DNA of 64,000 nucleotides from Microbotryum violaceum (taxonomy: Eukaryota): assembly GCA_001244265.2 (NCBI GenBank), contig CDLV01000012.1:930001-994000 (forward strand), in the 5' to 3' direction. The notes beneath the pieces are model-generated. The model had not been told where the DNA came from, did not search any database, and saw only the letters and a list, made by a program, of their open reading frames with translations. Shown here piece by piece: positions 4,232 through 63,640 of this stretch (its first letter is position 1; the number at the start of each line of letters is the position of its first letter). The position numbers and the translations under genes were made by a program.

Positions 4232-4727
4232 GTCGTGGCGATGGTACTGAGGATCAGCCATTGCTTGTACGACTGCCTTGATAACTGCTGAATCCTCAGC
4301 TGGACCACTCTGCGGGTTTGAGGGCAGAATTTGGCGGTGAACGCGAGAGGCAGGCCGTGGCCCGTTCGGCGCGGAGGGGGAAGCTGCTTTGGGGAGCTCT
4401 GCCTAATCGTCGTTGGCTCCCTTCTGAGCCATAGCAATTAGGCTTGACCCAGCTTAGCGCCTAGGAGACGTCCGTTGACCCAGCGCTCTCATATTAGTCC
4501 TCGTGAGGTGTAGACGGACTGACGTGGACGAGGCCCGTTCTCCGACGCTAGCGCGCATGGCCCCTCTTCTGTCGGGCGGCAGCGGGCGAGTGCGGGTGAG
4601 TGCGGGCATCTGCGGGCGTCTGCGCGAGTCTGCGCGCGTGACCCGTACTTGCAAGCAGGCGAGCTTTGACCTTTGTCTCTGTACCGACAGCGTCCGCTTT
4701 CCGAGCTCTCGCCGGATAAAGACAGGA

Positions 4728-6162: not shown

Positions 6163-6478
6163 AGACGCGTAGGTTGGAACGTGTTGTAGTATATTGATTC
6201 GTTAAACTTGTACAGTTCGCGCAAGTATAGCAGGAACGTTTTCACCGTCGCGTATCGTCGGGGTCGAAAATTGTGGGCCATCTCGAGATTTGTTCACCAG
6301 TCGGTTCGAACTTCGGAAGCGAAGACGTCATCGGTCGGAAGGAGCTCGGCCTTCTCGGACTTTCTCGGACTATGCTTGCCAGTGCTCGACCAAACGTGCG
6401 ACCCGTTGCATTCCCCTTTCTCCTTCCCAGCCCCATCTCTTCTCACCATACATCTTCCCAACCCTATCTTCGTCAAAC

Positions 6479-9400
6479 ATGGGTAAAGAGGAAGCCCCAC
6501 CCCCGACCATGATCCCTTCCGAGCTCAGCGCCTCGCCCGATTCGCCCCTCAGCTCGCTCGCGGTTCAGCTCGACGTCGATGAGCTGTCGAAAGCATATGA
6601 TGCGTCGCACCTCGACCGCGTGCACCAGAGCTGGCGTGCTTCGTGTTACCTCGCGACAGCGCAGATCTTTTTGACCGGAAATGCCACGATGGAAGAGAAG
6701 CTGACCAGGAAACACATCAAACCTCGTCTCCTCGGCGTAAGTTACAAGCAAGAGCTGATGGCGCGAGCTAGATCGGGCATCGGGCTTGACAGTCTTTATC
6801 GACGAGGAGGCGACTGTCACACTACCGGGAAGAAGTTTTCGGTCGGGTGACTTTGTGGTGGTTCCATAACTTGTCGACGTGCGAAAGCCGTATCTACTGT
6901 CGCGGCCACGATGCCATCGCATCGTCTCGCACGCCAAGGTATCGCCTCCGTTCCCAATCGCGTGCGCAGACCGAATGCGGCGATGACGCGTCGGGCCCGA
7001 AGGTCCACATGGGGCCCCGCATGTTGAACCCGACGCGACGTGCCACGACGGTGCCCACTTTACCCGTCCCCGAGTCAGCCGTGCCCACTTTATCCGTCAC
7101 CGAACAAACGGTGCCCAATTTACCCGTCACCGAACCAAGAACTAACATGGACATTCAAACCCCTTCCTTGATACCAAACAGCACTATGGTACGACCGGCG
7201 GTCTCGCGTTCGCCTACTCGCACACCCAAGCTCTCATCCGTCGTCGCGGCGAACAAGAAGACGGGAACGAGCCCAGCTTTCTGTTCATCACCGGCCCGGG
7301 CCATGGAGCGCCTGCGATCCTCTCCGAGCTCTACATCGAGGGTGCCATCTCCAAGTTCTACCCCGAGTACGCCATGGACAAGCAAGGCCTCAACAAGTTC
7401 GTCAAGAGCTTCTCTTGGCCGGGAGGATTCCCTTCCCACGTCAACGCTGAGACACCAGGATGCATTCACGAAGGTGGAGAGCTTGGTGCGTTCAAGAGAT
7501 CATAGCCCAAAATGTAACGATCTTCTCTGACCGCGCCTTTGCCTGGTCTTGCAACCGCAGGCTATGCTTTGGCCGTCGCTTACGGCAGCGTTTTTGACAT
7601 GCCTGACCTCATTTCGGTCGTCGTCGTCGGGGACGGAGAGAGCGAGACGGGTCCAACGGCGACTGCCTGGCACTCGCATAAGTGGCTCAACCCCGCGACT
7701 TCAGGCGCCGTCTTGCCGGTGCTGCACGTCAACGGCTTCAAAATCTCGGAGCGCACGCTCCCCGGAACCATGGACGCGACGGAATTAGCTTTGCTATATA
7801 CGGGCTATGGCTATCAAGTCCGCTTCGTCGAGTATGAGCCAGAGGGAGAGCCCACCATGGGAGGAAACGACCCAGCGGACATCAAGCTCAACCGCAACAT
7901 GGCAGTTTCGATCGATTGGGCGTACAGCGAAATCCGTAGAATTCAGAAGGCTGCGCGCTCGGGCCAGCCCCTGCAAAAGTCTCGCTGGCCATTGCTGATC
8001 TTGCGCTCGCCCAAAGGTGAGAGCGGCGTGTGTCTAAAGATACACGAGACGCGTAACAAGCTGACTTTTGGATTCTTTCTCCTTTATCTAGGATGGACGG
8101 GGCCCTTGACCGACGGCAAAGGCAAGCAGCTGCTCAACTCGTTCGCCTCGCATCAGGTTCCTCTCCCGGCCGCTGGCAAGGACGACGAACAGTTAGATCA
8201 TCTCGAGAGATGGCTCAGATCGTACGAGCCAGAGAAGATCTTCCAGCCGGAGCACAAGCTTTCGCAAGGCACCTCTATTCTCAATCAAGACTACGACTCT
8301 GTCCTTCCCAAACAACGAGAGCGTCGACTTGGTTTCGTCCCTGAGGCCTATCAGGGTTACAAGGTGCTCGATCTGGGCGACTGGAAAACGATGACGTACG
8401 AGAAGGGCGCAGAGGAGATATCGTGCATGAAGGCGATCGGGAAATTCCTCGCCGACACCATCAAGCGCAACCCGCGCAAGTTCCGCATCTTCTCTCCCGA
8501 CGAGCTCGCGTCGAACAAGCTCGACGGCGTGTTTGAAGTCACCAGTCGCGCCTTCCAGTGGGATCCCGAGACAGCGGACAAGGAGAATGCGGCAGTGATG
8601 GAGATGCTATCGGAACACACTTTGCAAGGCTGGCTTCAAGGCTACACCCTCACTGGCCGTTCAGGTGTCTTCCCTTCGTACGAGGCGTTCTTGGGCATCA
8701 TTGCGACTATGATGATCCAATACGCCAAATTCACCAAGAGTGAGTAGCGCGCTCGGCCCTGTGTTCTCGACCGCGCACCCCGAATCGAACACAAGGTTAA
8801 CTATCCTGGTGAGCACTCACTGATGCTTTCTACCCCTTTCTCCGGCTTGTTATTTTTCTTTAACAGTGGCTCTTGAAACTCCATGGCGTGGCCCGACGGC
8901 GAGTCTGACCTACATCGAGACCAGCACGTGGACACGCCAGGAACACAATGGGTACTCGCATCAGCAAGTGGGCTTCATTTCTTCCGTGCTCTCGTTGCCT
9001 GTTCACCTCGCTCGCGTCTACCTTCCAGCGGACGCCAACACCTCCGTCTCCGTCATTTCGCACTGCCTCAAGTCGAAGAACTATATCAACCTGATCATCG
9101 GCACCAAAGCGCCCTCTCCCGTATTCCTGACTCCGGACCAGGCCGAGGAACACTGCATCGCGGGTGCCAGCGTTTGGAAGTCTTACTCCACAGATGAAGG
9201 TGAGTCATAAGTAGTCTCAAGCCTTCCTCAACCTCTACCAAAACTAATTGCTGTTATGCTAGGTGTCAACCCGGATGTTGTGCTTGTCGGCATCGGTTTC
9301 GAGCTTACCGCCGAGGTTATCGCCGCTGCGGCTCGCTTGCGCAAAGACTTCGGTGACAGCCTCCGAGTCCGTGTGGTCAACGTCGTCGACTTGCTTGTGC

Positions 9401-32942: not shown

Positions 32943-33322
32943 TCGTAGAATCCATTGTTCAACTGCCTCACTGTTGCTCCCCTCACATCTTCACCTTCGA
33001 CGTACTCACTTTTCATGCTCCTCTTCGACCGTCAACCTCGCCTTGACCCCACCGTCCTCCTCTTGCTTACGTCATCCACTTTCGCCGAGTCCACCTCGGA
33101 GATTTGGCATTTCGTGGAGTTTCTCCGCCATTCGGCCGTTCGAGACGTCATGACGGGTATCATTAAAGATAACACAAAGAAAGTATTGTGCGCAACATGT
33201 TTGACTACCTACAAGTACTTCTCCTTTCTCCCCCCTTCTGCTTGGACCTGAAGTTGCGAGGTGGTGCCGCCACGATGGTTGCCCCCGCTGCCAGCAGCTA
33301 GCAGCTGCTTCAACTCGGAATA

Positions 33323-33736
33323 CACATGCAAGCGCGAAACTTACGGCTGCCGTAGGGCACAACTTGCCAAAAAAGAAAAGTGTGTCTGCAAGGACCAAAA
33401 TAACGTTGGCTCCCTTCTGATTTCAATCAGCATTGATTGAAATTAGTAGCTTTTTTTGCTGTGTGGTCCAGTGCAAGGCCAGCCCCTTCACAACTGGACT
33501 ACACACAGAGTTCCCTTGCGCCTTAAATGGCTCGCTTCTGATTTCGCAACCATTGAAATTGTTCGCTTTTTTGGCTGTGTAGTCCAGCTGTGAGGGGCTA
33601 GCAAAAAACCTAACAATTTCAAGCGATGCTGATTGAAATCAGAAGGGAGCCAACGTTATTTTGGTCCTTGCAGACACACTTTTCTTTTTTGGCAAGTTGT
33701 GCCCTACGGCAGCCGTAAGTTTCGCGCTTGCATGTG
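33323..33736. mobile_element. MITE / fold-back DNA element, ~112-bp perfect TIRs, TA target duplication
   Basis: TA|CACATGCAAGCGCGAAACTTACGG...CCGTAAGTTTCGCGCTTGCATGTG|TA. Confidence 0.9.
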
Positions 33737-33840
33737 TACGTCAGCCTGGCCCTGACAGGTCAGACGAGGGATGATCGATGATGAAGAGGAAGGATGGATG
33801 TGTAGGGCTTCGCTGTGTTTGCTTTTTCTTTTCTTCTACA

Positions 33841-43983: not shown

Positions 43984-44930
43984 GAACGGCACGGTATCAG
44001 AGCGAGTGATAGGTTTCACGGTGCCGAGGATAGACGAACAGGTCACGGGTGAAGGTCAGCGGCGAGGTGGTGGCTGTACCGGCGGTGTCGGGCGTGGACG
44101 AAGGCGAGCGTGGGCGTAGACCGTGTAGACGATCAGAGCGGGCAAGGGAAGGGTCGATCACAGACTCAGTCAGCGGGGCTCGATCTGAAGCCAACTCGCA
44201 GTCGTCTGTAAAGCGGTTGAAGTGGGCCAAGATCGAGGTCGACTGGCCGTGAGGCAGGGAGACGTCAAGAGGGGCAGCTGCCGCCTTCCGAAGCTGCTCA
44301 ATCCGCGCCCCCGCCTGCCCAAGCCTGTCATTCCAGCCGTGGCCGGTGCGGGTGGGGCTGGTCGCCGTCGCTCCGACTCTATAGACCGAAGAGATACGGG
44401 CCCCGCGCGGCACCGAGCGCGACTCGAGTCGGAGCTTAAAGAAAGCTTCCAAGTAACTGCCGACGTGCAGCGGGCACCAATCCTTGTGAGATAACTCACC
44501 TGTTGAAAAGAGGCCGTAGAAATGACAGCCCAGATATGGGTCGGGTGGTAGGCAGATCTGGAACGGATTTGATGGCGTAAATAACCGACCGCCGACCAAC
44601 CGTGACGGCTCAAATGATTAATTCCCCCGCCGGGCGAACAGCGCTCTTGAGGCAACAGGTACGTCATCACGTGGCGTGATCGACGTCTGAACTCAGCCAA
44701 GTGTTTCGAGCTACGCTCACGCCGAGCTGGATCATTCCATGGTGCTTGTAAAATCCGAGAACGCTTCGCAGTAGTGTCCGTTCCCCCGTATTAACTTCGC
44801 TCGACGGATAACAGCGACACACGGAAATACTGTGACGTCTCCGCAGAAACTTTTCACACTTCTCGGATGCGCACTACCCATATTATCACACCAGGTCGAA
44901 GACGGTACAGAGGATCCCCCCCCCCCTTCC

Positions 44931-45058
44931 TTTTCTTTGCTTGTAGAAACTGTTCATAATATTGCCTTTGTCTCCTGTTCCCTGTTTTGGCCTACGGAGA
45001 AACTAGTTGGAAGTCGACGATAATGCCCGCCAAAGCGTGAGAAACGGGCCGGTGTCCC
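44931..45058 (-). mobile_element. LINE family A, short decayed 3'-end fragment
   Basis: tgtagaaactgttcataatattgcc...ttttggcctacggagaaactag..ggaagtcgacgat matches 51080-51200. Confidence 0.8.
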
Positions 45059-45815
45059 CTATTTTTTGAGACTTCTAATTGTTTTTGTATGAGACTCATC
45101 GCTAGTTTGCAAGACGATCAAACCCCCACGGAACTGAAGTGAATACCACCCACGATGCGCGATAACAACCACAACCGCCTGCATGACGCATTGTAAGTAG
45201 CAGAACAGACCACCCCGTCTGGCCCGCCCGCCACCCAGCGGTTGCTCCGTCCCAGAGAACGAATGAGGGGAAGATCAAAGATGGTACAGGAGACAAATGA
45301 GAGGTGTCGAGGGTGGAGTTGGTTCTAGTTCACTTTGTTGAACAGGTATGCGTCCGAGATGTTGTACAGTGGGAACCTGCTTCGCGCCTTCAACTTGGAG
45401 CCGCCTCCAGAGCCTCCTAACCCCTCGAGGCCCTCAGTTTATTCCTTGCCTTGCCCCAAACAAGGTTTCCGATGGCACGAGTCCGTGGTTCATCCGAATG
45501 AGTCACGTAGTCAAAGTGGGAATGCCACCCCCTTCGACCGCAGCAATCACGTACCCCTTGTGCCCGGGCAACTACACTACGCTAACGCCGCCGAATCCGA
45601 TCCACCTAACCAAAGCCCCGCCGCGACCCGGCAGAATGAAGCAGCCCCCCAGCCTCAGATCGTCCGCGTCTAATGACTGCAACTGGGAAACAAGGCCTCC
45701 ACACAAGGCACACGATCGAGAGATTTCCGCGAAAGGTCACCGGCGAGAGCATGTGACAATCCAGTGGACACGCCTGAGTCGGTCTGCAGCGCTGCGCGCA
45801 GGTGAGTGCCAACCA

Positions 45816-45899
45816 TTTCTTTTTGTTTTACCGGGGCTCAAAACTTGCAATCCTTCGGGTTGGCTGGGACCGTTACAAAAAACGCTAAGAGAGGTTTTA
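45816..45899 (-). mobile_element. LINE family B, short 3'-end fragment
   Basis: T-rich tail + ggggctca..ttgcaatccttcgggttggctgggaccg.tacaaaaa matches 46656-46737. Confidence 0.8.
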
Positions 45900-46043
45900 G
45901 GTAGCTAGGGCTCGGGGGCGCCGTGAGCACACCTCCGTGCGTGACTCAAGGTCGATGCGAGCTCCGCGTGGGGACAAAAAAAATCGGTGCGCGCGCCTGA
46001 GAATTATATGGCAATCTAAAATAGATGTAGAGCAGATGGGCTG

Positions 46044-46612
46044 GTTTGGTTTGGTTTGTTTTGTTTTGTTTTGTTTGTAGATACTGTTCATCATATTGCC
46101 CCCCATTCCTGTTCCCCCTGATTGGCCTACGGAAACACTAGATGGAAGTCGACGATGATAACACAAACCGCCCGCAAGATGCGAGAAACGGGCCAAGTCC
46201 ACCAATCCGATACTTCGGATTCAAGTGCCTCAGCCAAGCGGTTGCTTTCCCCAGGAGACGAATGAGAGAGAGAAGGAGAGAGAGAGAGAGAAAGGAAACC
46301 AACCAGCGTACTAACGACAAGAGGCCCTCCCCGCCGCCACTTCCCAACTCGGTCGAGACAAAGACAGGAGAGCGACTGCGCAGCTACCCTGACCCGCGAA
46401 GTCCCAAGTCTATGCTCGGTCACAACAAGACGCGGCGGAGGCCCCTCAAAACCTCCACCTCAGCAGTCCCTGGCCTCTCAAAGCCGACTTTCTGCCTGTG
46501 TCTGCTGATCCCTCCCTTGACTCAGAACCCCGAAGACAAAGAGCGCGAGCCACCGTCGAGTCAATCCCAAATCGCGAGCCGATCCATGAGCAACGAAAGC
46601 AGCCACCTGTAA
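46044..46612 (-). mobile_element. LINE family A, 5'-truncated copy (~570 bp of 3' UTR), tail decayed to (GTTTT)n
   Basis: Collinear but clearly diverged match to 51069-51615. Confidence 0.88.
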
Positions 46613-46655
46613 TAGATGCCCAATTTGTTGTTTTTTTCATTTTGAATGAAACTCG

Positions 46656-49042
46656 TTTTTTTTTTTGACTGGGGCTCATAAATTGCAATCCTTCGGGTTG
46701 GCTGGGACCGCTACAAAAAGAGCTAAAGAGGGTTATAAAGCAACGACGGCAAGCAGTTGGGTGAAAGTCAAACCCCTGCGCGCAAAGAGCGCTGCGCAGA
46801 TCAAAACCCGCCGAGCACCTAACGCGGACTCCAACGGGCGGTGAGTACTGCTGCCGCTTCACGTCCCAAGAGCGGGAATGAAGTAAAAGTGCACCACCTA
46901 TAGAGATGGCAGCAGTAGGACGATACGCAGCAGTGTCAGAACCGATAGTTGAGGAACAAGTGATTAAAGAAAAGCTAAACAAGGGAGTCCGCATTGCGAA
47001 GGCATAGGCCCACGCGCAAGAATATAATCCACTCAGACACTAAGTTTAATCCACTGCCTTAAAACCAATCGAGCCCTGGGCGCGCGCCGCGCCTCGTTAC
47101 CGATGGCCTACCACCTAGACAACAGGGAGCGAAGATACTCGAAAACCAGGCAAGAGCGCCTAGAGAAAGAAGGGGGAGAATATACAGAAAGTCACGACTG
47201 GGGATACGGAGAACCAGGAATACTAAGACAGAGAGGAGGGGAACACACCCGAGGGGCCAAGGGAGGGGGTCGAAGCCGCAGCCGCAGGTAGAGGTCCCCA
47301 GGGACTAACAGGCCGCAGCCAAGCCCCAGCTACTCGTCACCCCGACAGCGCCTGATGTCCTCCCTTGGCTAAATCTCGAGTGCTGGCTGTTGAGCCGTCG
47401 GGGCCGAGAGAAAAGCGATCCAGTACAACGAAACGAGCCTCGCCTTGACGCGAGGATATTGACCAGAAACGAGCGACCTTCCTTCCCGAGCCATGCCGTA
47501 GATCTTGACCAACGCGAACGAACGAACCATTCAACGGAATCCAACACACGGCTTAGGAGTAAAAGGAGAAGTGGCTGAAGCGTAGTCAACAACCGAGCAA
47601 CAGGAACGAGAAGAGGAAGGGAAGGGAAAAAGGGGGGAAAGGAGAGGGAAAAACTCAGAAAGCCTCCAACGCAAAGACAATCGACCTGGCTTGCCGATCC
47701 ATCCAAGAACAAAAAACCGCTACTGCGCAAAGTAGAGAGAGAGAGGGAGAGGTGCGCAGCCTTCCACTGCGCAACAAGTTCCAAGACAGTCAGCTTCTAA
47801 AAGAGGAGTCGACCTCCGAAAAAGAAGGGAGGAAAGGAGGGGAGGAAAATGGGAAGGAAGGACTTAACTCGGTCATCACACCTCCCAATCTCGAGCCCCA
47901 GGCACAAAACCCGCTCGAGAGAGAAAATCTCGCTCGAACGCTCTGAGTGCACTGGGGAGCGAGGGAGGGGCCACGACCTTGTCCAGCTCGAACCGCTGAT
48001 GAACGCGCCAGCGGAGCAAGTGCAGCCGCTGGAAGCCGATCGCGCAGGCCAGCCGAACCCACATCCATCTCGAGGTCGTTCTCCCACGACCCCGCAAAAG
48101 GGGGAGCCCCATAGTCAGCTGCTCCGGAGTGAACGTCGACGGATCGACGTCGGTATCCTCGATGCCCAGCTTGTCGAACAGAATGCGAAGCACCCAACCC
48201 AGAAGCTGGTCGAGTACGCGCACTCGAAGAAGTAGTGCGACACCGTCTCGATGACCGCTGCATCGTTGCCGCAGAACAGACACGTCGGCGAAGAGGCATG
48301 ACCCTGAGTATGCTGCCTCTTGCGCGTCGGCGTCACGTCGTACATGAGCCGCCAGTGGGTGTCCTGCTCCACAGCAGACGCGAACCGGTCATGAAGCCAT
48401 CTCCAGAAGCGCTTCCTATCGCTCTGAGGAGTCCCATCACGGAAACGCTTGACACGATCCTCCCTTCCTGGGAACCGAACCACGTTCACAAGCCGACGAA
48501 GCTTGCGAACAGTGAACGGTCGGGTGAGCCCAAAGAAGTTGAAGCACCGAGGACGGGGAGCCTCCTTGAGAGGTATCCGAGCAGGTCGCAACGCGGTCTT
48601 GGGCAGCAAGGCTTTCGCCTTGAGCAACTGACCCACGCGCGACCACACGTGCTCGTGCTGTAGGGCGGGTTCCTTAGAGTGCTGCCAGAACCCGCGTCGA
48701 TGACCAACCAGAGCCCAGCCCTTTCCTTCGTCCCTCCAGTACAGGTCCGCGATCTGCGCAAACTTCGCCACTGCGTCCGCATCGTCATATGCGTGCTTGG
48801 CACCTTCAGCATAGAGTGAAGGGAGGCGAGGCGGAAGCGAGAGCAATTCGGGGAGCGTAAGGAGTTCGGACTTGATGGTTGGAACTGTGACCCTGGCAGC
48901 TGCAACGACTGCCCCCCAGCGCGTCGAGTCGCGATACAGCTTCTCGACCCGAGCCGTGCTGCTGAAGAACCCCCACGGACTGAAATCGCGGGTCGCAGCG
49001 ACGAGGGACCTCCAGCTCTCGCGAGCTAGGGGCGCCCAGATC
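46656..49042 (-). mobile_element. LINE family B, 5'-truncated copy 1 (ORF2 C-terminus, ~1.2-kb 3' UTR, polyA)
   Basis: T11 at 46656-46666; WRLMYDVTPTRKRQH..CLFC....ETVSHYFFEC (zf-RVT-type CCHC); stop at 47876. Confidence 0.88.
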
Positions 49043-49318
<276 letters not shown>

Positions 49319-49321
49319 ACA

Positions 49322-51067
49322 CCTGCGCCCAAAGAGCGCTGCGCAGATCAAAACTCGCCGAGCACCTAACGCGGACTCCAACGGGCGGTGAGTACTGCTG
49401 CCGCTTCACGTCCCAAGAGCGGGAGCAAAGATACTCGAAAACCAGGCAAGAGCGCCTAGAGAAAGAAGGGGAGAGTATACAGAAAGTCACGACTGGGGAT
49501 ACGGAGAACCAGGAATACTAAGACAGAGAGGAGGGGAACACACCCGAGGGGCCAAGGTAGGGGGTCGAAGCCGGAGGTAGAGGTCCCCAGGGACTAACAG
49601 GCCGCAGCCAAGCCCCAGCTGCTCGTCACCCCGACAGCGCCTGATGTCCTCCCTTGGCTGAATCTCGAGTGCTGGCTGTTGAGCCGTCGGGGCCGAGATA
49701 AAAGCCATCCAGTACAACGAAACGAGCCTCGCCTTGACGCGAGGATATTGACCAGAAACGAGCGACCTTCCTTCCCGAGCCATGCCGTAGATCTTGACCA
49801 ACGCGAACGAACGAACCATTCAACGGAATCCAACACACGGCTTAGGAGTAAAAGGAGAAGTGGCTGAAGCGTAGTCAACAACCGAGCAACAGGAACGAGA
49901 AGAGGAAGGGAAGGGAAAAAAGGGGGAAAGGAGAGGGAAAAAACTTCACAAAGCCTCCAACGCAAAGACAATCGACCTGGCTTGCCGATCCATCCAAGAA
50001 CAAAAAACCGCTACTGCGCAAAGTAGAGAGAGAGAGGGAGAGGTGCGCAGCCTTCCACTGCGCAACAAGTTCCAAGACAGTCAGCTTCTAAAAGAGGAGT
50101 CGACCTCCGAAAAAGAAGGGAGGAAAGGAGGGGAAGAAAATGGGAAGGAACGACTTAACTCGGTCATCACACCTCCCAATCTCGAGCCCCAGGCACAAAA
50201 CCCGCTCGAGAGAGAAAATCTCGCTCGAACGCTCTGAGTGCACTGGGGAGCGAGGGAGGGGCCACGACCTTGTCCAGCTCGAACCGCTGATGAACGCGCC
50301 AGCGGAGCAAGTGCAGCCGCTGGAAGCCGATCGCGCAGGCCAGCCGAACCCACATCCATCTCGAGGTCGTTCTCCCACGACCCCGCAAAAGGGGAGCCCC
50401 ATAGTCAGCTGCTCCGGAGTGAACGTCGACGGATCGACGTCGGTATCCTCGATGCCCAGCTTGTCGAACAGAATGCGAAGCACCCAACCCCAGAAGCTGG
50501 TCGAGTACGCGCACTCGAAGAAGTAGTGCGACACCGTCTCGATGACCGCTGCATCGTTGCCGCAGAACAGACACGTCGGCGAAGAGGCATGACCCTGAGT
50601 ATGCTGCCTCTTGCGCGTCGGCGTCACGTCGTACATGAGCCGCCAGTGGGTGTCCTGCTCCACAGCAGACGCAAACCGGTCATGAAGCCATCTCCAGAAG
50701 CGCTTCCTATCGCTCTGAGAAGTCCCATCACGGAAACGCTTGACACGATCCTCCCTCCCTGGGAACCGAACCACGTTCACAAGCCGACGAAGCTTGCGAA
50801 TAGTGAACGGTCGGGTGAGCCCAAAGAAGTTGAAGCACCGAGGACGGGGAGCCTCCTTGAGAGGTATCCGAGCAGGTCGCAACGCGGTCTTGGGCAGCAA
50901 GGCTTTCGCCTTGAGCAACTGACCCACGCGCGACCACACGTGCTCGTGCTGTAGGGCGGGTTCCTTAGAGTGCTGCCAGAACCCGCGTCGATGACCAACC
51001 AGAGCCCAGCCCTTCCCTTCGTCCCTCCAGTACAGGTCCGCGATCTGCGCAAACTTCGCCACTGCGT
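49322..51067 (-). mobile_element. LINE family B, copy 2 (truncated at both ends, internal deletion)
   Basis: Near-identical to 46775-48776 but lacks ~46878-47127 (deletion at GGGA microhomology). Confidence 0.9.
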
Positions 51068-51723
51068 GTTTTTTTTTTTTGTAGAAAACGTTCATCATAT
51101 TGCCCCAGTTCCTGTTCCCCCTGTTTTGGCCTACGGAAAAACTAGATGGAAGACTACGATGATAACACAAACCGCCCGCAAAAGTGCGAGAAACGAGCCA
51201 AGTCCACCAATCCGAGATTCGGATTCAAATGCCCTAGCCAAGCGGTTGCTCCCCCCAGGAGACTAATGAGAGAGAGAAAGAGAGATGAAGAGAAAAAAAG
51301 AAAGAAAAGAAATGTACTAACGACAGAAGGCCCACCCCACAGCCACTTCCCACTCGGTCGAGACGAAGACAAGAGCACGACTGCGCAACCACCACGACCC
51401 TCGACGCTCCAAGTCTCTGCTCAGTCACAACAAGACGCGGTGAAGGTCCCTCAAAACATCCCCCATCGGCAGTCCCTGGCCCCTCAAAGCCGACTTTCTG
51501 CCTGTGTCCGCTGATCCCTCCCTTGACTCAGAACCCCGAAGCCGAAGAGCGCGAGCCACACCGAGTCGACGCCAAATCGCGAGATGGTCCATGATCCGCA
51601 ACGGTGAACCTGTAACAAATGAAAGATGAAAGCGATCTATTTAGTGTACAGTAGGAGAAAATGATGTCACGAGAATTTGGTGTGTGTGTGTGGTGGTGGT
51701 GGGGGGAAAGTCGAACCCAGCCT

Positions 51724-54700
51724 CTACTGCCCTCTCCTCCCCCAAGCTCCTCCCGCCCTCAGCTTCAACCTCTCCTCCAAGATGATCCTCCTCCTCACAA
51801 CACCCTCCATCTTCGTCCCCCACTTCTGCATCCCCCACCTCCCGCTGCTGATCATCTCCAAGACCAGCCCGGTGAATATTTCGATCGTCCTCCCGCTCCT
51901 TCTTGATCGCGTAGACTGGCCTTGAGCTTCGGAAGTCCGAACATGCGTTGAACAGCCGTGTAATGCGTGTTGTCGATCGTGTCGAGCCCCAGTGCGTCGC
52001 AGAGCACGCTCCTTGCCGCGATCCAAACGTTCCCAGAGTCAACGCAGTCGAAAAAGTAGTGGTCGGTGTCGTCCACCGGCGCCTCGCAGACGAGGCACGC
52101 GGGAGAAGTGTCGTGATTCTGTTGGTGTTGCAGCTTGCGCGTCGGGGTGAAGCGGAGAATCAGCTTGAACCAAACTTCCCTCTCCCTCGCCGTCAGTGCC
52201 TTCGAGTTGACCGCCTTCCAAAAGCTCCTGAGGTCGTCCGGCTGCGGTGGTCCCTTGAGCCCGAGCGTGTTGGTAAAGGCCTTCGCGTTCAGGACCCGGC
52301 GGATGCGACGGATGGTGTACGGTCGAGCCATGTTCAGCAGCTTGTACTGGCTCGCCTGCTGTGGAAGCACCGGGTCCGGAAGGCGCTGCTCCATTGCGAA
52401 GCGGGCCACGGGCTTGGGGAGAATCGCCTCGAGCGGTGCGCTGGTGCCGATCCGGGGAGGCACGTTGAGCCGTCCTGCCGCCACCGCCACCGCCAAGGGC
52501 GTGTTCTTGTGTCGATCGACAGTAAACCGGTACCAGGCCGCGATTGCCAGTCGCTGCGGGAGCCCGCGTCGATCGTACTCGCTGTTGTCGCCGAGCACAT
52601 CCGCCGGCGGCGTCCAAAGGTGAAACCCCCCACCCGCATACAACTCGCGCCGGTAGAGATCCGCCACCTTCGGGTAGCCCTGGAGACGAAGGTAGTCAGG
52701 TATATGAACCGCGTCGATGGTCTGTCTCCCTCTGATGGGGGTGTGGAGGCTGCCGAGCAAGGTGGGAAGCGCGAGCAGGTTCGCGGTGGTCAAGGTCCTC
52801 GGGTTGACCTGCGCGTCTTGCTGTTTCGGAACCCCCAATGCTGCTCGCCATCGGGGATGGAGGTCGCTGGGGATGGGAGTGGATGGATGTGGCCAGAGAT
52901 CGGTGGCCAGGTCGAGGTCGGACTGAGCTCGCTGGAGTGCCACGCGCGCAAGTCCTTGCCAGATCGCGCCCGAACCGCCGAGAAGAACGTCCCAGATCCG
53001 TGCCGCAACCGCGTCCACGACGTCCTGCATCCTGATCACCCCGAGTCCCCCTTGAGCTTGGCTGTGAACACGATATCTCTGCCGTAGCTGGTCCTGCCCT
53101 TGCCCCCACGGACGAAATCGACGAGCATGTCATCGAGCTTCTTGACGACTTCGGGCGGCGGGATGTCGGCTGCAAGGAAGTGCAGGATCTTGGGGATGGC
53201 GTACCGATTGACGTAAAAGGCACGGGTGTGGTGTGTGAGCCAGCGATGCTGAACCCCTTCCAGCGTCGCCTCGAGGCGTTCGATGAGATTCGCGTAGGCG
53301 AGTTCGGTGTCGCCGCTCGGGTCGAAGGGGAGGCCGATCCACTCGAGCGACTCGCCTGCGGCCTTGACGACGAGCGGGCGTTGCCCCGGGTCCCAGCGGC
53401 GTCCGATCGGTAGGACGACCGTCTTGTCCGTGTTGAGCCGGCCATTCGTTGCATGCCTCCAGTCGAGCGCCAGGTCATCGAGCAAGTTGAGTGACCCCAA
53501 GCCCGCGACGGCGACGACAACGTCATCGGCAAAAGCAAGCGATGTAATGGCGCGGCTCTGTGGGTACGGATGAAGTGCAGGTATGGAGAGATTCAGCGCG
53601 ATGTTTCGACGGTGTAGAGCATCCAGAAACGGCTGAAACACGATGTCCCAGACCGACGACGACGCCGGGTCCCCTTGGCCGAGCCCACATGTCAGTCGTA
53701 CCGGCGCCGTCAAGAACCCATTGATGATGTAGCGGGCCGAGGTCGAGTCACCCGAGTAGAGCATCCTCAGCACGCGAAGAAAGGTGGCAGGAGCGCCCAG
53801 AGCGTCAAAGATGGCAAAGATCCAGTCATGCTCGACGAGGTCGTAGGCGGACGATTGGTCAAGAGATAAGAGTGCGGCCGCGGGGAACTCGGTCCTGCGC
53901 GCGCCAACTTCCTCGATCAGGAGACGAAGGTGTAGTGCAGCGTCAGCCGATCGGCGGTCCTTGACGAATCCGTGCTGCTGCGGCGGGAGGAGATCCGGTA
54001 GAATTTGGTTCAAACGGGCGACATAGACCTTGGTAAAGATCTTGTAATCGCACTCGCGCAGGGTGATCGGCCGGTACGCCGAAAGTTCGGCGCGATCAGC
54101 ATTCTTCTTGTGTCGCTTGAAGATGAGGCGCACGAGTCCTTGGCCCTGCTTGGGAGAGAGTGAGCCTCGCTCTATCATCGCGTTGTAGGCCTTGGTCAGC
54201 ACCTTGGCCCACGCCTTGGGTGCGGTCTGGTAGAGTTCGTAGGGCACGCCCGACGGTCCCGGCGATCGCCCCGGGTGCGTCGTCCCGATCGCGGCCACGA
54301 CCTCGTCCTCGGTGATTGGTCGCTGGAGTAAGTCGTTCTGTGATTCCGAGAGTCGGCGCAGAAAGAGAGGATCCGAGCGCGGGTCGTCGCAAGTCCGCGC
54401 CGCCCTGATCGGCGCGAGGAAATCGTCCCGAAGTCGGTCGACGCGGTCCGGGTCACGAGGCTCGATGTGGTAGAGGCGCTGGAAATGCGCCTGCGTGTGG
54501 TCAAGAGCGACATCAATGTCATGCGTTAGCTCTCCGTTGCTCAAGCGCAGTGCTGTGATCTTGGAGTCCGAGTTCCGCGCCGCGAGCTTGGCGTGGACCG
54601 GCCGCGACAGTCGTTCCTCGGAGGCGATCTCGGGTACGTGGGCTCGGATCCGGAGTAGGCGCGCGCGCTCCTCGACCGCCCGCTTGAGTTCCTCGGACGT

Positions 54701-55739
54701 CCTTGTCCATTCTGCCGTTTCCGCCTCCCCCATTCCGGTATCGCCTCCAGATCCTGCACCCTCCCCACCAAATACTCCATCCGTTCCGTCCGCTCCCGAT
54801 GCAACCTCCTCGCCATCTCCCCACCCCTATCCCTGCACGCCTTCAGAATGACCTCGAGCTCCCCCACCGGTTCCTCCCCGCTTGCCCCTTCCAACCATCC
54901 TTCCATCATCCGCTGGAATTCCACCGTCTTAAAGGTTGTGGTGTTGATTCGATGTGGTTGGTTTGATGTGGTAGGTAGGCTGAGCTGTGGGAGGGTCGCA
55001 TCAGGATCGTCTGAGAGAGCCAGCACAATCAAGACCGGTCGGTGATCGGAAAGCTCCTTGGGATAGTCGTAGATCGTCGAGGCCTGATCGAGTCTTTTTT
55101 GGTGTGTCCGTTGCAGGAGAAAGTAGTCAAGCCGGGAGAAGGAGTTGGGTCGCTTGCGATTGGGATTAGGTCGAGTGAAGGATGGGGTGATGGGGTGTTT
55201 GTAGCGGATGCAGTCCGTGTAGGCCGAGTCGAGCTTGCCGATCAGGATTGGCCAGTGGTGGCCGCGCCGACTTTGGTTCCGCCGATCGACTTCTGGGCGC
55301 GGGCAGTCGTTGAGATCACCGCCAAGGAGTCGGAGGTGGGATTTCTGTGTTTTGTGAAATAAGAGTTTGTCAAAGAATTTCGCTCGTTGCTTTGGGTCAA
55401 CGGCGCGTAAACGTTGTTGATTTCTAGAATTTTGATGTCGCCCCGCAGTCGAAAGGACGTGACGAGGAGCCGGCCGTCGAGTGCCGAGTGGGTGCGCAAG
55501 AGCTCGGCGTCGATCAGGGGGGAGTCAGCCGGAATTAGAGTCAGACAATGTTGGTTGATGAAGAGCTTGCCCTCGTACTCGTCCTTGATGAGTTGCCAGA
55601 GGTGCGGTCTGATGAAGTGCTCTTGTATGAGAATGGCCGATGCTTTGAAAAGGGATAGGTAGTTGTAAATGTCACGTCGTTTCTCCGGGACCCCCATGCC
55701 CCTCCTCACGTTCCAGGTGATGATGGTGTGCTTAATCAT
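51724..55739 (-). CDS. LINE ORF2: APE endonuclease + reverse transcriptase + C-terminal zinc finger (about 4 apparent frameshifts)
   Basis: [101 protein letters not shown]; no RNase H seen. Confidence 0.9.
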
Positions 55740-58018
55740 TAATGGGTAGTTGAGGTCGAAGCGCTCTTGGCGGTGGTGACGTCCTCAAAGAGGGGAGGGC
55801 GGGCAGGACATCGTCCTCGGGCTCGTGGTCGGACCATCTTTTCTCCTCGGCTACCCCCTTTGCTTTCCCTCGGTCCACTTTCGTCACGCCAACCGGCATC
55901 GCCGCCGCCGCTGACATCGACCTCGTCACCCTCCGCCCCTCTGTTCCATCCTTGACAACGACGCGGCTCTTCCCTTTGATGATCACTCGCTTGGCGTCGG
56001 TCGGTTCGTCACTCGGGTCACTGAGGTCCGCCGCAGTCTGCGACCTCTTCATTACCGGCTTTTTGAACTTCGAAGCGGTCCCCCTGATATTGATGGAACG
56101 TATCTCACCGTCCTCATCCCACGTGGCAAAGTTGTGACGCACCAAAGGGGTTTCAGCGTCGAGCCTCCTCTCGATGCTTTGGTCCCGCTCGAGTCGTGCC
56201 TGCTCAACCCAGTTAGCTCTGATCCTGTCCCACTCCTCCCCTCGCGAAGCGACTTGGCAAGAGTTTCGGGTGACAAAGGTGGGGTTGGTTCGTGGGGTGT
56301 CGATTCGCGGGAAGCGGTGGCGGCGGTTGCTGTTGCGTCGCTGTCGTCGTCATTGCCCAGCCTGTTCGTCTCCCCTAAGTCCGTCGCTTCCGCGTTCTCC
56401 GCTTTCGTCGCTCCCCCTGCCTCGTCCACATCGTCCACCTCCGTCGCCACCTCCTCTTCCTCCATCTCCGTCGCCACCTCCCTTTCCTCCATCTCCGTCG
56501 CCACCTTGCCTTCTGTTTCGCCCCTTCCATCCGCCATCACCTCATCCTCATCAATCACCTCTCCATCGGATCCTCCGCAGTCCACTAAAACCGACTCGTC
56601 CTCGCTCTTAAGTTTGATGACCTCCGTTTTCACGGTCGCCTCTGATTCCATCTCCGAGTCCTCCGAGTCCTCGTCATCCGCCTTATCACCAGCCTCCTCC
56701 TCCCCCGATTCCTCTGGCCCCTGTCCGCTCTGGCCAGTTACCGCTTCCTCCTGTCCCTCCTCAACCTCGAGCCCGGCGAAGCGATTCTGTGATGCGATCC
56801 TGCTAACAACTGGCACAGGAATGGGGGCCTCGGCCTCCACAATGTTGGTGTCGTTGGTGATGGTGTTCTTGTTGGCGTTGGGGTTGCCGTTGCCGTTGCC
56901 GTTGCCGTTGTGAGCCTCCTTTCGCTTGCTCTCCTGATCCAGTCCGCAGGTTCCCACGTGACCAACGAAGTGGCACCTACCGCAAGCCGCCTCCTTCTCA
57001 TAGTCATGGCGAAGGGCGGTGACGGGGATGCCTCGAGTGGGAAGGCCGATTCTCGAAGGTAGGATCTCTTTCAAGGTCGTGTTAGGGCGTTTGAACAGGG
57101 AGTCGTCATCGAAGTGTAGGAAAGCTGAGTAGTCTCCGGCAACGTGGGCAAAGGCCGAGGCGTTGTCCACGCTGATAATGCGCAGAACCTGCACAAGTTG
57201 GCACGAATGTCCCTTGCCTGACAAGTCCTGCACTAGTAATTGGAACGATTTGATGATGGCATCCATGGAAGGCACTCCTTGAACACCGACGTTGATTCGA
57301 AGCTCGACCATGTTATGGTGGAACCTGTGAGATTTCGCGAAGCGGGCCTTCGCCGATCGCCAAGTGAGAGCAGGGGCGTCGTAAGCGCAGCGTCACGTGC
57401 CTCGCCGGTGACGAACCCAACGGTAACGCGATGGTGAGCCGCCCCATTACGCAGGATTGATGAATGTTGTACGCCTAGGATCTGTGGTCGATAGGCTGCA
57501 AGGTGGTCCGGCAGAGGAACTCCAGGCTCAAAGCAGATAGGAGAGATCGGCGATAACAGCCTCGTGACGCAGGCCACGAGATCGGTCTTGTCGGCATGAG
57601 ACGCTCGCGAGGCGCTCTGGTGAGACAGAGTCACTTCAAGGGCGTAATCAAAGATGTTCTCGACAGACCGGTTCGCGTTCAAGGCCGAGAATTTCAGCGA
57701 TGTGGCGGTGGCGACGGGGTAGAGTTCGGCGAAGTAGATGGCCTGGACCCAACGATCCATGCGGTTTCCGGGTACAGCACCCATGGCTTGTAGGAGGCTG
57801 CCCAGAGCCTTGGCACGCTGTTGTTGTTGTTGCTGTTGTTCAGGTGACTGAGTCGCCTGACTCGCAGCGGCGGCATAGTTGGGTGCGGCGGTGGCGGGGC
57901 CCGTGGCTTGCGTCTTCTTCGAGCTTATCGGGATCTGGTCGCGGGGTGGCTGGACGCTGGTGGCGGACACCGGTGGTGGCGGTGCCGGCGGTGGGGACCC
58001 AGGGTCTCCTGTAGACAT
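55732..58018 (-). CDS. LINE ORF1 (gag-like; zinc knuckle; 2 apparent frameshifts)
   Basis: Consecutive ORFs 58018-57233, 57311-56052, 56145-55732; [13 protein letters not shown] knuckle; polyQ, (NG)n and acidic tracts; stop overlaps the ORF2 ATG (ATGATTAA). Confidence 0.8.
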
Positions 58019-58141
58019 CTTGTCGGTGTATCACTTGTTAACTCGAGTATCGAAGACTGCGGTAGGGCGATTTCGAAGTGAATCATCTGGGGTAAATGTC
58101 ATTAATCGATATGCCAGGTAGGGCCAGTCTCTTCGTCCAAA

Positions 58142-58223
58142 GCCCGGTTGATCTAGTCGGTTATGATGCAGACCTAATAACGCGTTAAGTCTGATGTCGG
58201 CGGTTCGATCCCGCCACTGGGCA
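58142..58223 (+). tRNA. tRNA-Ile (anticodon AAT) with 8-nt intron (58180-58187)
   Basis: Cloverleaf: acceptor GCCCGGT/ACTGGGC+A, D arm ATC/GAT with AGTCGGTTA, anticodon stem CAGAC/GTCTG with CT-AAT-A, T arm GGCGG-TTCGATC-CCGCC. Confidence 0.93.
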
Positions 58224-58240
58224 TTTTCTTTTGTTGTTTT
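58224..58240 (+). terminator. RNA polymerase III T-tract terminator
   Basis: ttttcttttgttgtttt immediately after the tRNA. Confidence 0.65.
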
Positions 58241-58783
58241 GCTGCAGCCGGTAATTTCTTCGGGCAGGCCTAGAACATGCCCAAGCTATCTCTTTTTTCC
58301 CTCGGATGGCTACCGAAACATATGTGTAAGGCAGGACTTATGATGATTTCATCTTCCTACCACAGATCTCGTGCACGCACCGTTCGCTCCAAATCGAGGC
58401 GTTTGACCCCTGACATCTGTAATCCAACATGAGACGAATGTCAAGTTGTGGCACGACTCCTGTGACTAAGTTGTATATCTTCCCAAACTAGGTTCGGCGG
58501 CGCGCGGAGCGCGCCACCTCACACTGAAAATCAGCAGTTCTGTTACATTATTGCAGGTGGCTACGGTTTTTACGCTGCTTTCATCTATGTTTTCGGGAGT
58601 TCTTGCAGGACTGGACAGAAGTTCCGAGCTTTGACCATCGGCAGCTCCACCTTGCCGTCGTTGCAACTTGCCCTGAATACTGGAGGATCCCGTCCTCCCA
58701 AGCGTTCAAAGTCCCAGTGGAAGGCGTTACACTTCCGACACAGAAGATCCATTGCACCTAAGTCGTGTCAAGGGTAGGCTCCC

Positions 58784-58828
58784 GGCAGTGGACGCAGTGG
58801 ACGCAGTGGACGCAGTGGACGCAGTGGA
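58784..58828. repeat. 9-bp tandem repeat (gcagtggac) x5
   Basis: Read directly. Confidence 0.9.
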
Positions 58829-59149
58829 ATCGGTGACTGTGCGGCGGGTGGATGTCGCCGTGCGCGAACTGAACGCGCTCCCGGAGGTTCCAGACTTGTA
58901 GGTCGTCGCTGCGGGATAGAGTTGACATCGGGCGTTGGCTGGGGTGAAGGCGATTGATTGATAGATTCATTCTGCTGCCTTTCCCTGAGTCTCCGCAATT
59001 GTTGTGCCCTAGATCTTCTGGAAGTAGAATGATTCGTCGATGTTGATGCGGTAGAGGCAGGGTTCGGCGAAGAACTGTGTGGGACCGGACCGGAACGCTC
59101 TCGCTCAAGCCATCGTCGTTGCTGGCCTTCAGACCTCCGAGACGTCGTG

Positions 59150-60733
59150 CAACTATCAGTATTCTTGCTGTTGTCCATCTGTAGCTATGGCAGTAAAGAC
59201 TCACATTTAGTGTCCCAATGACCCGGATTCTCAACCGTATGAAGTCAAGCAGCACCTCAACTTCCCCCCAGAAGTCCGCATTCCATGAAGCAAGCGTCGA
59301 CGATCTATGCAGGCGATGACTTGAGAATAACGGGAAGGCATTGCTTCGGATCCCCTGTAATGTTACAGTCGAACCGGTCAGTTGGTCATGCTGCCCTGCG
59401 TTTTGCTTTTGAAAAATCGGCACACACCTGCCAACACGACGGTCACTCCACCGAACCGAGCTGTTGAGGATCTGCCACGGGATCTATACTGCATGCTGCA
59501 GACATTTCTTGATAAAACCTGTCCCGTATTCGTGGCAGAGCTTCGACGACGACCCCTTCGGGTGTCGCGAGTTCGAGGCCTATATGTCTCGAGCATAGAG
59601 AGATGCAGCACCTCAACGTCCCCCCAGAAGTCAGCATTCCATGATGCAAGCGTCGACGATTTGTGCAGGCGATGACTTGGGAATAACGGGAAGGGATCTT
59701 GAGAAAACTTGTCCCCTGTGATGTTGCAGTCCAACCGGTCAGTTAGTCATGCTGCCCTGCGCTGTGCTGTTGAAAGATTGGCACACACCTGCCAACACGA
59801 CGGTCACTCCAACGAACGGAGCCGTTGAGGATCTGCCACGGATGGTGAGCCGCAATTCACGGACCTGTTTTTCTTGCGTGACTCGTTACAACTATTAGTA
59901 TTCTTGCTGTTGTCCATCTGTAGCTATGGCAGTGAAGACTCACATTTAGTGTTCCAATGTCCCGGATTCTCAACCGTACAAAGTCAAGCAGCACCTCAAC
60001 TTCAACCCAGAAGTCAGCATTCATGATGCAAGCGTCGACGATTTGTATAGGCGATGACTTGAGAACAACGGGAAGGCACTGCTTCGTATCTCCTGTCATG
60101 TTACAGCCCAAACGGTCAGTTAGTCATGCTGCCCTGCGCTTTGCTTTTGAAAGATTGGCACACACCTGCCAATACGACGGTCACTCCACTGAACCGAGCC
60201 GTGGAATAATGGGAAGGCATTGCTTCGGATTTCCTGTGATGTTACAATCCAACCGGTCATTAGTCATGCTGCCCTGCGTTTTGCTTTTGAAAGATTGGCA
60301 CATACCTGCCAACGCGATGGTCACCCCACCGAACCGAGCCGTGGAATAACGGGAAGGCATTGCTTCGGATTTTCTGTGATGTTACAGTCCAACCGGTTAG
60401 TTAGTCATGCTGCCCTGCGCTTTGCTTTTGAAAGATTGGCACATACCTGCCAACACGACGGTCACTCCACCGAACCAAACCGTTGAGGGTGACGGGAAGG
60501 CATTGCTTCGGATCCCCTGTTACAGTCCAACCGGTCAGTTAAGCATGCTGCCCTGCGTTTTGTTTCTGAAAGATTGGCACACACCTGCCATCGCGACGGT
60601 CACTCCACCGAACCGAGCCGTCGAGGATTTGCCACGGGATCTGTACTGCATGCTGCACAGTTTCTTGAGAAAACTTGTTCCGTATTCGTTGCAGAGCTTC
60701 CACGACGACCGCTTCGGATGTCGCAAGCTCGAG
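59150..60733. repeat. Complex satellite: six ~140-bp units plus higher-order duplications
   Basis: Unit gggaaggcattgcttcgga...tcatgctgccctgcg.tttgcttttgaaagattggcacacacctgccaa..cgacggtcactccac.gaaccgagc starts at ~59332, 59688, 60070, 60211, 60351, 60494. Confidence 0.92.
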
Positions 60734-61178
60734 GTGGCAATGGGATGAGGTGCGATGGGTAAGGTGTGAAGAGCAGGAGGGAGAAAGATGGAGAAGCCTG
60801 CGCCTCAGTTTGAACCGGACTCATAGAATGTCGTGGAAGGCCGCGGAACGTCGTGGAGTGAAGCCCGAAGCAGAAGGTCATGTGCCAGGCTGCTTTGATG
60901 GGAAATGGAACCTCGGCGAACGTGGACGGAATGGTCTGTCGCCACGTGATTTGTCTCCCGTTCTCTGACGTTCTTTGACGTCGACGTGGTAGACACGCAA
61001 ACCAGTCTGCTTCGGGACACAGAGAGTCACGTGCTATTCAATGGAACCTCGGCGAACGTAGGCGAAACGGTCTGAAACAGCGCTAGCTAGCTGGGACGCG
61101 CTGGACCAAGAGCTGCTGATGACGTCACGCCACGTGGTTTGTCTTTTGTTCTAGAAGATTCATTGTCTCGACGTATCC

Positions 61179-62958: not shown

Positions 62959-63250
62959 CGTTGTACAAGACGACAGCAATCTGGACCCCGCCCTCCCAAA
63001 GTGGCTGATGAAAATATTTCTAACCACACGATACAGCTTGGCGAGGTGAGCTCGGGCGCCTTCTTTATGGCCGGCCACTGCAACTGGTGGAGCAGTCGAC
63101 TCGTGCTCAAAGGAACCCCCAGATCCACTCCCATGGTACGGACCCGCCGAGCTCACCAACCTTCCCTCAAATGGTGACGATACCTCTTGGACGGTCTTTT
63201 GATGAGAGGAAAGGGGTCTGGAACATGCAAGACGCTTCGGACTTGTTCTA

Positions 63251-63640
63251 CACATGCGTGCGCGAAACTCATGGATGCCATATGGAAAAACGCCGTATGT
63301 CTGCCAAGACCAAAGTTACCTTGCACCGTGAACGGCTCCCTTCTGATTTCAATCAGCATCGATTGAAATTGTTATTATTTTTGCCAGCCCCTTCACAACT
63401 GGACTACACAGCCAAAAAAAGCCAGCAATTTCAAGCGATGCGGAATCAGAAGGGAGCCATTTAAGGCGCAAGGTAACTTTGCGTGTAGTTAGTTGTGAAG
63501 GGGCTGGCAAAAATAATAACGATTTCAATCAATGCTGATTGAAATCAGGAGGGAGCCGTTCACGGTGCAAGGTAACTTTGGTCTTGGCAGACATACGGCG
63601 TTTTTCCATATGGGCTCCATGAGTTTCGCGCGCGCATGTG
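63251..63640. mobile_element. MITE / fold-back element, ~150-bp near-perfect TIRs, TA target duplication; related to 33323-33736
   Basis: TA|CACATGCGTGCGCGAAACTCATGG...CCATGAGTTTCGCGCGCGCATGTG|TA; shared core ggctcccttctgatttcaatcagcat.gattgaaatt and ccagccccttcacaactggactacaca. Confidence 0.9.

Follow-up and report, generated by a model that had tools for sequence, protein, structure and literature searches.

A head-to-tail stack of L1-type retrotransposons beside a tRNA-Ile gene in Microbotryum violaceum suggests tRNA-directed integration in a fungus

RESULTS

Organization of the locus

We analyzed 64,000 nucleotides of the Microbotryum violaceum genome (GenBank assembly GCA_001244265.2, contig CDLV01000012.1, positions 930,001 to 994,000, forward strand; this whole stretch is called the window, and positions are counted from its first letter), in which long interspersed nuclear elements (LINEs), which are retrotransposons without long terminal repeats (non-LTR elements), are stacked beside a tRNA-Ile gene. 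The original prediction, made from the letters alone, had at least six LINE-derived segments lying head-to-tail on the minus strand over ~13 kb. By self-comparison of the window, reading of the sequence, and protein matches, we resolved six LINE pieces with that strand and arrangement (E1, E1b, E2, E3, E4, and E5), plus one non-LINE 279-bp TG..CA repeat (X). The extent of ~13 kb holds, with boundaries corrected to 44916-58082. The pieces belong to two families, A and B, which have ~45% identity in the reverse transcriptase (RT) region. From the tRNA gene outward, the features are as follows (evidence in brackets; L001 is a second copy of family B on a metagenome contig, and P0004 and P0058 are Microbotryum gene models, P0058 being a family-A model of 1333 amino acids [aa]).

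58142-58223, plus strand: tRNA-Ile(AAU) gene with an 8-nt intron (~58179-58186) and a T-rich run after it (Rfam RF00005, ARAGORN with introns, sequence)
58083-58141, no strand: single-copy spacer of 59 bp between the LINE 5′ end and the tRNA gene (contig depth, L001 alignment)
51068-58082, minus strand: E5, full-length family-B LINE, 7015 bp (Pfam, colinearity with P0004, contig boundaries, L001 alignment)
49322-51067, minus strand: E4, family-A fragment (P0058 aa 1035-1333, 98%), truncated at the 5′ and 3′ ends, no tail (self-comparison, protein match)
49043-49321, no strand: X, 279-bp high-copy repeat with TG..CA ends (TGTT/AACA), resembling a solo LTR, without matching flanks (sequence, contig depth)
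46656-49042, minus strand: E3, family-A fragment (P0058 aa 944-1333) with a pure A11 tail at 46656-46666 (self-comparison, protein match)
46041-46655, minus strand: E2, 5′-truncated piece of a family-B 3′ untranslated region (UTR) with a degenerate (CAAAA/CAAAC)n tail (self-comparison)
45816-46040, minus strand: E1b, short piece with a family-A-type 3′ end and a degenerate A-rich tail (87% identity to 46658-46734)
44916-45815, minus strand: E1, apparently the oldest piece, with a degenerate A/G-rich tail (last ~130 nt like a family-B 3′ end, 76-81%)

The tRNA-Ile(AAT) gene predicted to begin at 58142, head-to-head with the last LINE, was borne out. The Rfam tRNA model (RF00005) scored 46.9 bits at 58142-58223 on the plus strand, compared to a gathering score of 29, and ARAGORN with introns allowed returned the identical span with an 8-nt intron. 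The gene was missed by default ARAGORN and by a whole-window Rfam scan at the gathering score; this is an effect of filter and intron and no argument against the gene. Its anticodon loop is CTAATA, followed by the intron. Since the canonical position of tRNA introns is 37/38, the anticodon is AAT (Ile); the ARAGORN label for the same span, Asn(att), is the product of a different intron placement and was rejected. No other tRNA gene was found in the window, and this one is covered by single-copy contigs in all four sequencing runs described below. The single-copy island around it is only ~440 bp long (58083-58523), with ~300 bp on the downstream side of the tRNA gene. A satellite-like array of ~140-bp units that are 85-90% alike (59150-60734) starts ~900 bp downstream of the gene and is multicopy in four runs.

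E5 is a full-length element of the L1 superfamily

The piece nearest the tRNA gene had been predicted to be a full-length element encoding an apurinic/apyrimidinic endonuclease (APE) and an RT, with the ATG of its first open reading frame (ORF1) at 58018. Pfam and a gene model upheld this, with the qualification that ~six frame breaks interrupt E5 in the window. The element begins with a 64-nt 5′ UTR (58019-58082) that opens with one TTCAC unit. ORF1 starts at 58018, ORF2 extends to ~51724, and a 3′ UTR and a pure A12 tail (51069-51080) follow. A 2082-aa Microbotryum gene model is colinear with the window from the ATG at 58018 to 51727, and E5 is colinear with P0004 at 98-100%. In ORF2, Pfam identified PF03372 (APE), PF00078 (RVT_1), and PF13966 (zf-RVT), in that order on the minus strand, and found no RNase H domain in E5. 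The closest solved structure to ORF2 is human LINE-1 ORF2p (E value, 4.8e-25, over APE to RT). Because it combines APE, RT, and a C-terminal Cys/His motif with a poly(A)-type 3′ end and no RNase H domain, E5 qualifies by sequence as a member of the L1 superfamily of non-LTR retrotransposons. Distant homologues of family-B ORF2 carry the automatic name “Transposon TX1.”

Family B as a whole is ~7 kb long, with an ORF1 of ~735 aa followed by the APE-RT-zinc-finger ORF2. ORF1 matched no Pfam family, and Atlas gave only weak CCHC/RNA-binding leads (<0.9) for it. At 57055-57093, ORF1 has a CCHC-like knuckle (CGRC..C motif) and then a long acidic tract.

Four of the ~six frame breaks (51891, 53046, 55401, and 57372) are probably homopolymer under-calls of the long-read assembly. 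At these positions the contigs of all four runs have one extra base and the family-B consensus is in frame, and all listed single-base difference sites of E5 fall in runs of G or C. Since homopolymers are probably under-called, apparent frameshifts elsewhere in the assembly should be treated with caution. Relative to the contigs of four runs, many G/C homopolymers of the window lack one base.

The closest database relatives of families A and B are Microbotryum gene models with 96-99% identity, many of them in clusters of 29-76 near-identical members, and we therefore consider both families abundant and recent. Fused gene models at other loci join the two families in either order (A then B in P0001, B then A in P0003).

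Position of the E5 5′ end

We aligned Logan contigs of four public sequencing runs, under three organism labels, to positions 48800-60000 at ≥90% likeness. Among the contigs listed, the multicopy ones (depth, 264-343; runs X1 and X11) stop at 58082, whereas 58083 or 58079 is the first position of the single-copy ones (depths, 10.8, 46.4, and 98.6; runs X1, X2, and X5), which span the tRNA gene. The alignment of the L001 copy with the window covers 51071-58082, its 5′ edge falling exactly on 58082. From the contig ends and the L001 alignment, we place the 5′ end of E5 at 58082, which leaves a spacer of 59 bp to the first base of the tRNA gene. The original prediction had put this end within ~120 bp of the gene; the proximity was right, and the distance is now exact. 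E5 and the tRNA gene thus stand head-to-head, 59 bp apart. We rejected the possibility that the tRNA gene and spacer are parts of the element: depth drops to single copy at 58083 in the runs aligned, and the spacers of the two sites discussed below differ.

No target-site duplication (TSD) was found at E5 or L001 (neither of the 2 copies). A 6-bp candidate TSD motif at 58056-58061 was discarded, as it falls inside the element once the 5′ end is set at 58082. In run X11, multicopy contigs continue past 58082 as a GTGAA repeat that is absent from the window. The number of TTCAC/TTTCAC units at the 5′ end of family B varies, with one in the window (58078-58082) and at least four in both L001 (2880-2905) and the X11 consensus contig; this variation may be a by-product of 5′ end joining. 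Depth ratios suggest that each genome has ~7-13 copies whose 5′ end is intact, with 3′ ends far more numerous.

Anatomy of the stack

Along the stack, the tail of one piece adjoins the truncated 5′ end of the next, on one strand throughout, and families A and B alternate; the 5′ truncation of E4 directly adjoins the tail of E5. E1, E1b, and E2 are recognizable only through noncoding similarity at their 3′ ends and through their tails, and protein matches gave no coding similarity for E1. E2 has 85% identity to E5 and 89% to L001, with clear homology from near 46612. E3 and E4 have 1.65 kb in common at 98.2% in the self-comparison. The 3′ UTR of E3 contains 247 bases (46878-47124) that are absent from E4, having been either inserted in E3 or deleted from E4. 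Where E4 stops, the family-A consensus runs on past 49318, as it does in E3 (contig loose end).

Between E4 and E3, repeat X coincides with the highest depth bin of the stretch, and family-A homology stops at 49042 in four runs. Repeat X is probably a solo LTR left by recombination between elements, to judge from its ends and setting. Many genomic copies of X lack 49088-49263, with the joint present in three runs. In run X2, a single contig at a depth of 59.7, its short side being 30 letters, connects 49321 to 51072 and omits exactly E4; it may represent an allele without E4 or another locus.

A second family-B copy carries half of an apparent tRNA gene

The sole other 5′-complete copy of family B that we reached is on the 12.4-kb metagenome contig L001. 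The element (2880-9022, plus strand) has several TTCAC-type repeats at its start and poly(A) at its end, and it is inserted, antisense, in a Copia gag gene. Translated downwards from 2775, the left flank matches positions 65-169 of 172 of the Retrotran_gag_2 profile, and the right flank is the gag N terminus (weak DUF4219 match). These flanks continue in frame across the insert. The Copia element around the insert occupies 1-2775 and 9024-9368, and its polyprotein extends to the start of the contig.

Between gag and the TTCAC repeats, L001 has 102 extra nucleotides (2778-2879), with the poly(A) tract at the opposite junction. Read on the opposite strand, this extension consists of a ~62-nt spacer and then 40 nt that resemble the 5′ half of a tRNA-Ile gene. 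Positions 2-38 of the window tRNA are matched in register by these 40 nt, which include the loop CTAATA, a 4-bp D stem, and an A-box-like TGGTCTAGTGG. Their local alignment score against the window tRNA is 30; shuffled sequences scored 15.6 ± 2.5, and 0 of 500 reached 30. The first 40 nt of the tRNA gene were also used to scan the 64-kb window and metagenome contigs L001-L008, in 10,828 60-nt windows covering both strands. The L001 segment was the only non-self window with a score of ≥26, the next best being 25.

The spacers of the two sites are not significantly alike: there is a weak 32-column local match, whose score was reached by 36 of 500 shuffles. In a three-way comparison of 3′ UTRs, private changes numbered 65 for E5, 34 for E2, and 21 for L001 (of 576), and L001 grouped with E2. 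Since the spacers are unlike and the subfamily is another, the locus from which L001 derives differs from the window locus. An origin from the orthologue of the window locus was rejected as unlikely, as the spacers cannot be aligned beyond the weak match and the subfamily differs. A template switch onto a mature tRNA, as in U6-L1 chimeras, was also rejected: the tRNA piece of L001 is antisense, and ~62 nt of genomic spacer separate it from the element.

To judge from the sequence, the extension, element, and poly(A) tract of L001 are one inserted unit, and the simplest reading of the extension is a 5′ transduction. Because a spacer and an antisense tRNA half would have been transduced, the source element of L001 would have lain ~60 bp upstream of another tRNA gene, head-to-head with it. 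It would also follow from such a transduction that transcription of some tRNA-adjacent copies starts in or beyond the antisense tRNA, upstream of the element. The claim that insertion is specific in position and orientation relative to tRNA genes thereby acquires a second site (~62 bp, same orientation), and it has to be relaxed: any targeting is not absolute, since the L001 insertion itself lies in Copia gag, away from a tRNA gene. The other metagenome relatives, L002-L008, are 5′ truncated or too remote, and no tRNA gene was found on any of them. A search of viral contigs gave no match.

Younger pieces appear to lie nearer the tRNA gene

Identity to gene models falls from 98-100% for E5 (P0004) through 98.7% for E4 to 96.9% for E3 (both P0058), and E2 has 5.9% private changes in the three-way comparison. 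E5 and E3 have tails of pure A, whereas the tails of E2, E1b, and E1 are degenerate. These trends suggest that younger elements lie nearer the tRNA gene and that the stack grew from the tRNA side. The evidence for an age gradient is moderate only, as subfamily differences inflate some of the distances. Much of the E2-E5 divergence is of this kind, and so only the private changes of E2 serve as a measure of age. Growth by insertion into poly(A) tails predicts younger pieces downstream and is therefore disfavored.

Every family-A or -B copy in the window sits at the one tRNA gene, and no further copy was found in the remaining ~50 kb of the window. The Microbotryum genome has a size of ~26 Mb. 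A passage of one Microbotryum genome paper gives 134 tRNA genes. With these two figures, a 5′ end would fall by chance within ~100 bp upstream of a tRNA gene, and in this orientation, with a probability on the order of 3 in 10,000.

DISCUSSION

tRNA-directed integration and its rivals

In Dictyostelium, elements of the TRE5 family, through contact between ORF1 protein and TFIIIB, insert upstream of tRNA genes at a distance of 40-54 bp, 5′ end toward the gene (passages of PMC5911963 and PMC5006619). We propose that L1-type LINEs of Microbotryum have independently arrived at a TRE5-like, tRNA-directed integration without being members of the TRE5 family, and we put the probability of this at about 65%. 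Two related families of the L1 superfamily would insert preferentially ~60 bp upstream of tRNA genes, 5′ end toward the gene. Each new insertion would land between the tRNA gene and the preceding element, and a head-to-tail stack would extend away from the gene with the youngest element nearest; the order of arrival would be E1, E1b, E2, E3, E4, E5. For family A, its place in the stack is the sole reason for inclusion in this scheme. The landmark may be the RNA polymerase III (Pol III) initiation complex (TFIIIB/TFIIIC) on the tRNA gene, as for TRE5-A of Dictyostelium, and a protein of the element, for which ORF1 is a candidate, would recognize it; both the complex and the role of ORF1 are suggested by analogy only. 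As observed, any preference for tRNA genes is not absolute. A more far-reaching version, in which a fungal L1-type lineage of the Microbotryomycetes combines Pol III-guided integration ~60 bp upstream with use of the head-to-head position as a promoter, so that the tRNA gene is both landing mark and ignition, is tentative, and we would sooner doubt it than accept it.

Several observations weigh against tRNA-directed integration. The documented tRNA-adjacent sites number only two, of which the first was picked for its striking look. The L001 insertion is in Copia gag, with no tRNA gene on its 12.4-kb contig, and Infernal in truncated mode, with E values up to 10, made no tRNA call on the L001 extension, which is unsurprising for 40 decayed nucleotides. 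A 5′ transduction marks an expressed source copy and could reflect a bias of expression rather than integration. The relatives on L002 and L003 (45-49% identity, 5′ truncated) have no tRNA gene within 3 kb and 10 kb upstream, and at least 8 of the 120 homologous gene models listed are fused with Copia or Gypsy domains, placing copies inside clusters of transposable elements. The 5′ end of family A was never observed, and E4 is truncated at both ends. The stack has also been rearranged, as seen from an E4 without a 3′ end and a TG..CA repeat inside the stack, and the run X2 contig that omits E4 is unexplained.

A rival account is random integration followed by biased survival or expression, in which head-to-head copies upstream of tRNA genes are tolerated in a gene-dense genome, escape silencing, or borrow promoter activity, and so last and come to be the source copies that are expressed. 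The window is gene dense outside the stack, the 5′ UTR is only 64 nt long, and L001 bears witness to an expressed source copy with transcription from upstream of the element. Selection alone, however, would not yield two sites that agree within ~3 bp and in orientation, and dead, 5′-truncated pieces such as E1-E4 gain nothing from expression and yet accumulate at one point. We consider this account unlikely.

The original prediction had itself named two ways in which the stack might have formed without tRNA targeting, insertion into A tails and segmental duplication; tails, divergence, truncation points, and L001 all disfavor them. If insertions were directed to the poly(A) tails or ends of earlier LINEs, with a founder near the tRNA gene by accident, a tail followed by a truncated 5′ end would be expected at every junction, as is seen; A/B head-to-tail chimeras do exist at other loci (P0001 and P0003), the run X2 contig joins the E5 tail straight to X without E4, and poly(A) targeting is documented for Zorro3 (passage of PMC7175516). 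Such stacking would leave the L001 transduction of a second tRNA, with like spacing and orientation, unaccounted for, and the target of L001 is gag coding sequence, not poly(A). It also requires the downstream pieces to be younger, whereas the tails of E2, E1b, and E1 are degenerate and these pieces show more private change than E3-E5, and E4, the supposed entrant into the E5 tail, has no tail of its own. We regard it as distinctly unlikely. Duplication of a few insertions, whether segmental or tandem, with rearrangement appears highly improbable as the origin of the stack. E3 and E4 do share 1.65 kb at 98.2%, and an E4 truncated at both ends, separated from E3 by a solo-LTR-like repeat without matching flanks, is what recombination between elements leaves behind. 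The 5′ truncation points of E3 and E4 nevertheless differ (P0058 aa 944 versus aa 1035), as do their surroundings; E1, E1b, E2, and E5 each have their own 3′ end and tail, with alternating families; and duplication gives no account of L001.

Comparison with known systems

The likeness to TRE5-A/B/C lies in the two ORFs, an ORF2 of APE, RT, and zinc finger, and copies that accumulate at one site upstream of a tRNA gene. The orientation of TRE5, with the 5′ end facing the tRNA gene, was found at both sites here (2 of 2). The distances of 59 and ~62 bp are of the same order as the 40-54 bp of TRE5 and slightly outside its range, at two sites only. TRE5 elements make TSDs, unlike the Microbotryum copies, in which we found none (2 of 2). 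The host is a fungus, the ORF1 protein is a different one without a Pfam match, and there is at least one insertion that is not near any tRNA gene. TRE5 UTRs are built of A, B, and C modules, according to a passage of PMC5911963, whereas the 5′ UTR here is a 64-nt stretch with TTCAC repeats. The relation to TRE5 is expected to be one of convergence. There is precedent for this: NLTR-B of Polysphondylium pallidum (~50 bp) and NLTR-A of Dictyostelium purpureum (2-6 bp) insert upstream of tRNA genes and are described in a passage of PMC5006619 as unrelated to TRE elements and independent. Both are amoebozoan and have an RNase H domain, which the Microbotryum element lacks.

Tx1-type elements also belong to the L1 superfamily and are likewise linked to Pol III or small-RNA genes; their insertion site is a fixed sequence within a repeat (snRNA, 5S, and tRNA genes, or microsatellites). 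At our locus the tRNA gene is intact (46.9 bits), the element lies 59 bp outside it, and the two spacers are unlike; we infer that the element reads position, not sequence. The label “L1/Tx1” of the original prediction therefore stands in its first half, with human L1 ORF2p as the closest structure, and falls in its second as far as Tx1-type insertion at a fixed sequence is concerned.

Among fungal L1-type LINEs, Ylli of Yarrowia lipolytica (ORF1, 714 aa; ORF2, 1300 aa; no recognizable TSD; passages of PMC5014426) resembles family B in its long ORF1 and lack of a TSD, and no target is stated for it in those passages. Zorro3 of Candida albicans targets poly(A) tracts (passage of PMC7175516), and Cnl1 of Cryptococcus neoformans and Zorro1/2 are described in such passages as targeting subtelomeres or telomeres. 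Zorro3 and Ylli are L1-type LINEs and Cnl1 is CRE-type, and the passages available on them report no tRNA association. Zorro3-type insertion places poly(A) at both flanks; here, the L001 target is gag coding sequence, and the 5′ flank of E5 is a spacer of mixed sequence. The LTR retrotransposons Ty3, Ty1, and Tj1 of yeasts are directed upstream of Pol III genes (passages of PMC5911963). They use LTRs and an integrase, whereas the Microbotryum element uses target-primed reverse transcription with an APE nuclease.

The supposition that no such case is known for fungal non-LTR elements agrees with our literature search: in full text, with subscription-only papers, Repbase reports, and supplements outside its scope, we found no fungal non-LTR element reported as tRNA associated. 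The non-LTR elements in the table of a 2018 review are dictyostelid only. Within these sources, dictyostelid amoebae are the only organisms in which non-LTR elements are documented to target tRNA genes in a position-specific manner. If the fungal case is true, such targeting would have arisen independently for a third time on a chassis of target-primed reverse transcription, and the way in which APE/RT machinery reads a Pol III complex could be tested outside Dictyostelium, in a genus for which many long-read assemblies and population samples exist and whose haploid yeast-like cells can be transformed. The fungal case would also mark tRNA-flanking stacks of transposable elements as recombination substrates and assembly breakpoints in Microbotryum genomics, and it could inform the design of safe-harbor insertion tools.

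Other features of the window

The ~44 kb to the left of the stack are gene-dense host DNA, with genes for phosphoketolase, Vps8, Ric8, an oxysterol-binding protein, and an eIF2B-family protein. Two ~330-bp repeats in inverted orientation, unrelated to the LINE families and 65-75% alike, stand 30 kb apart at 33321-33738 and 63249-63557.

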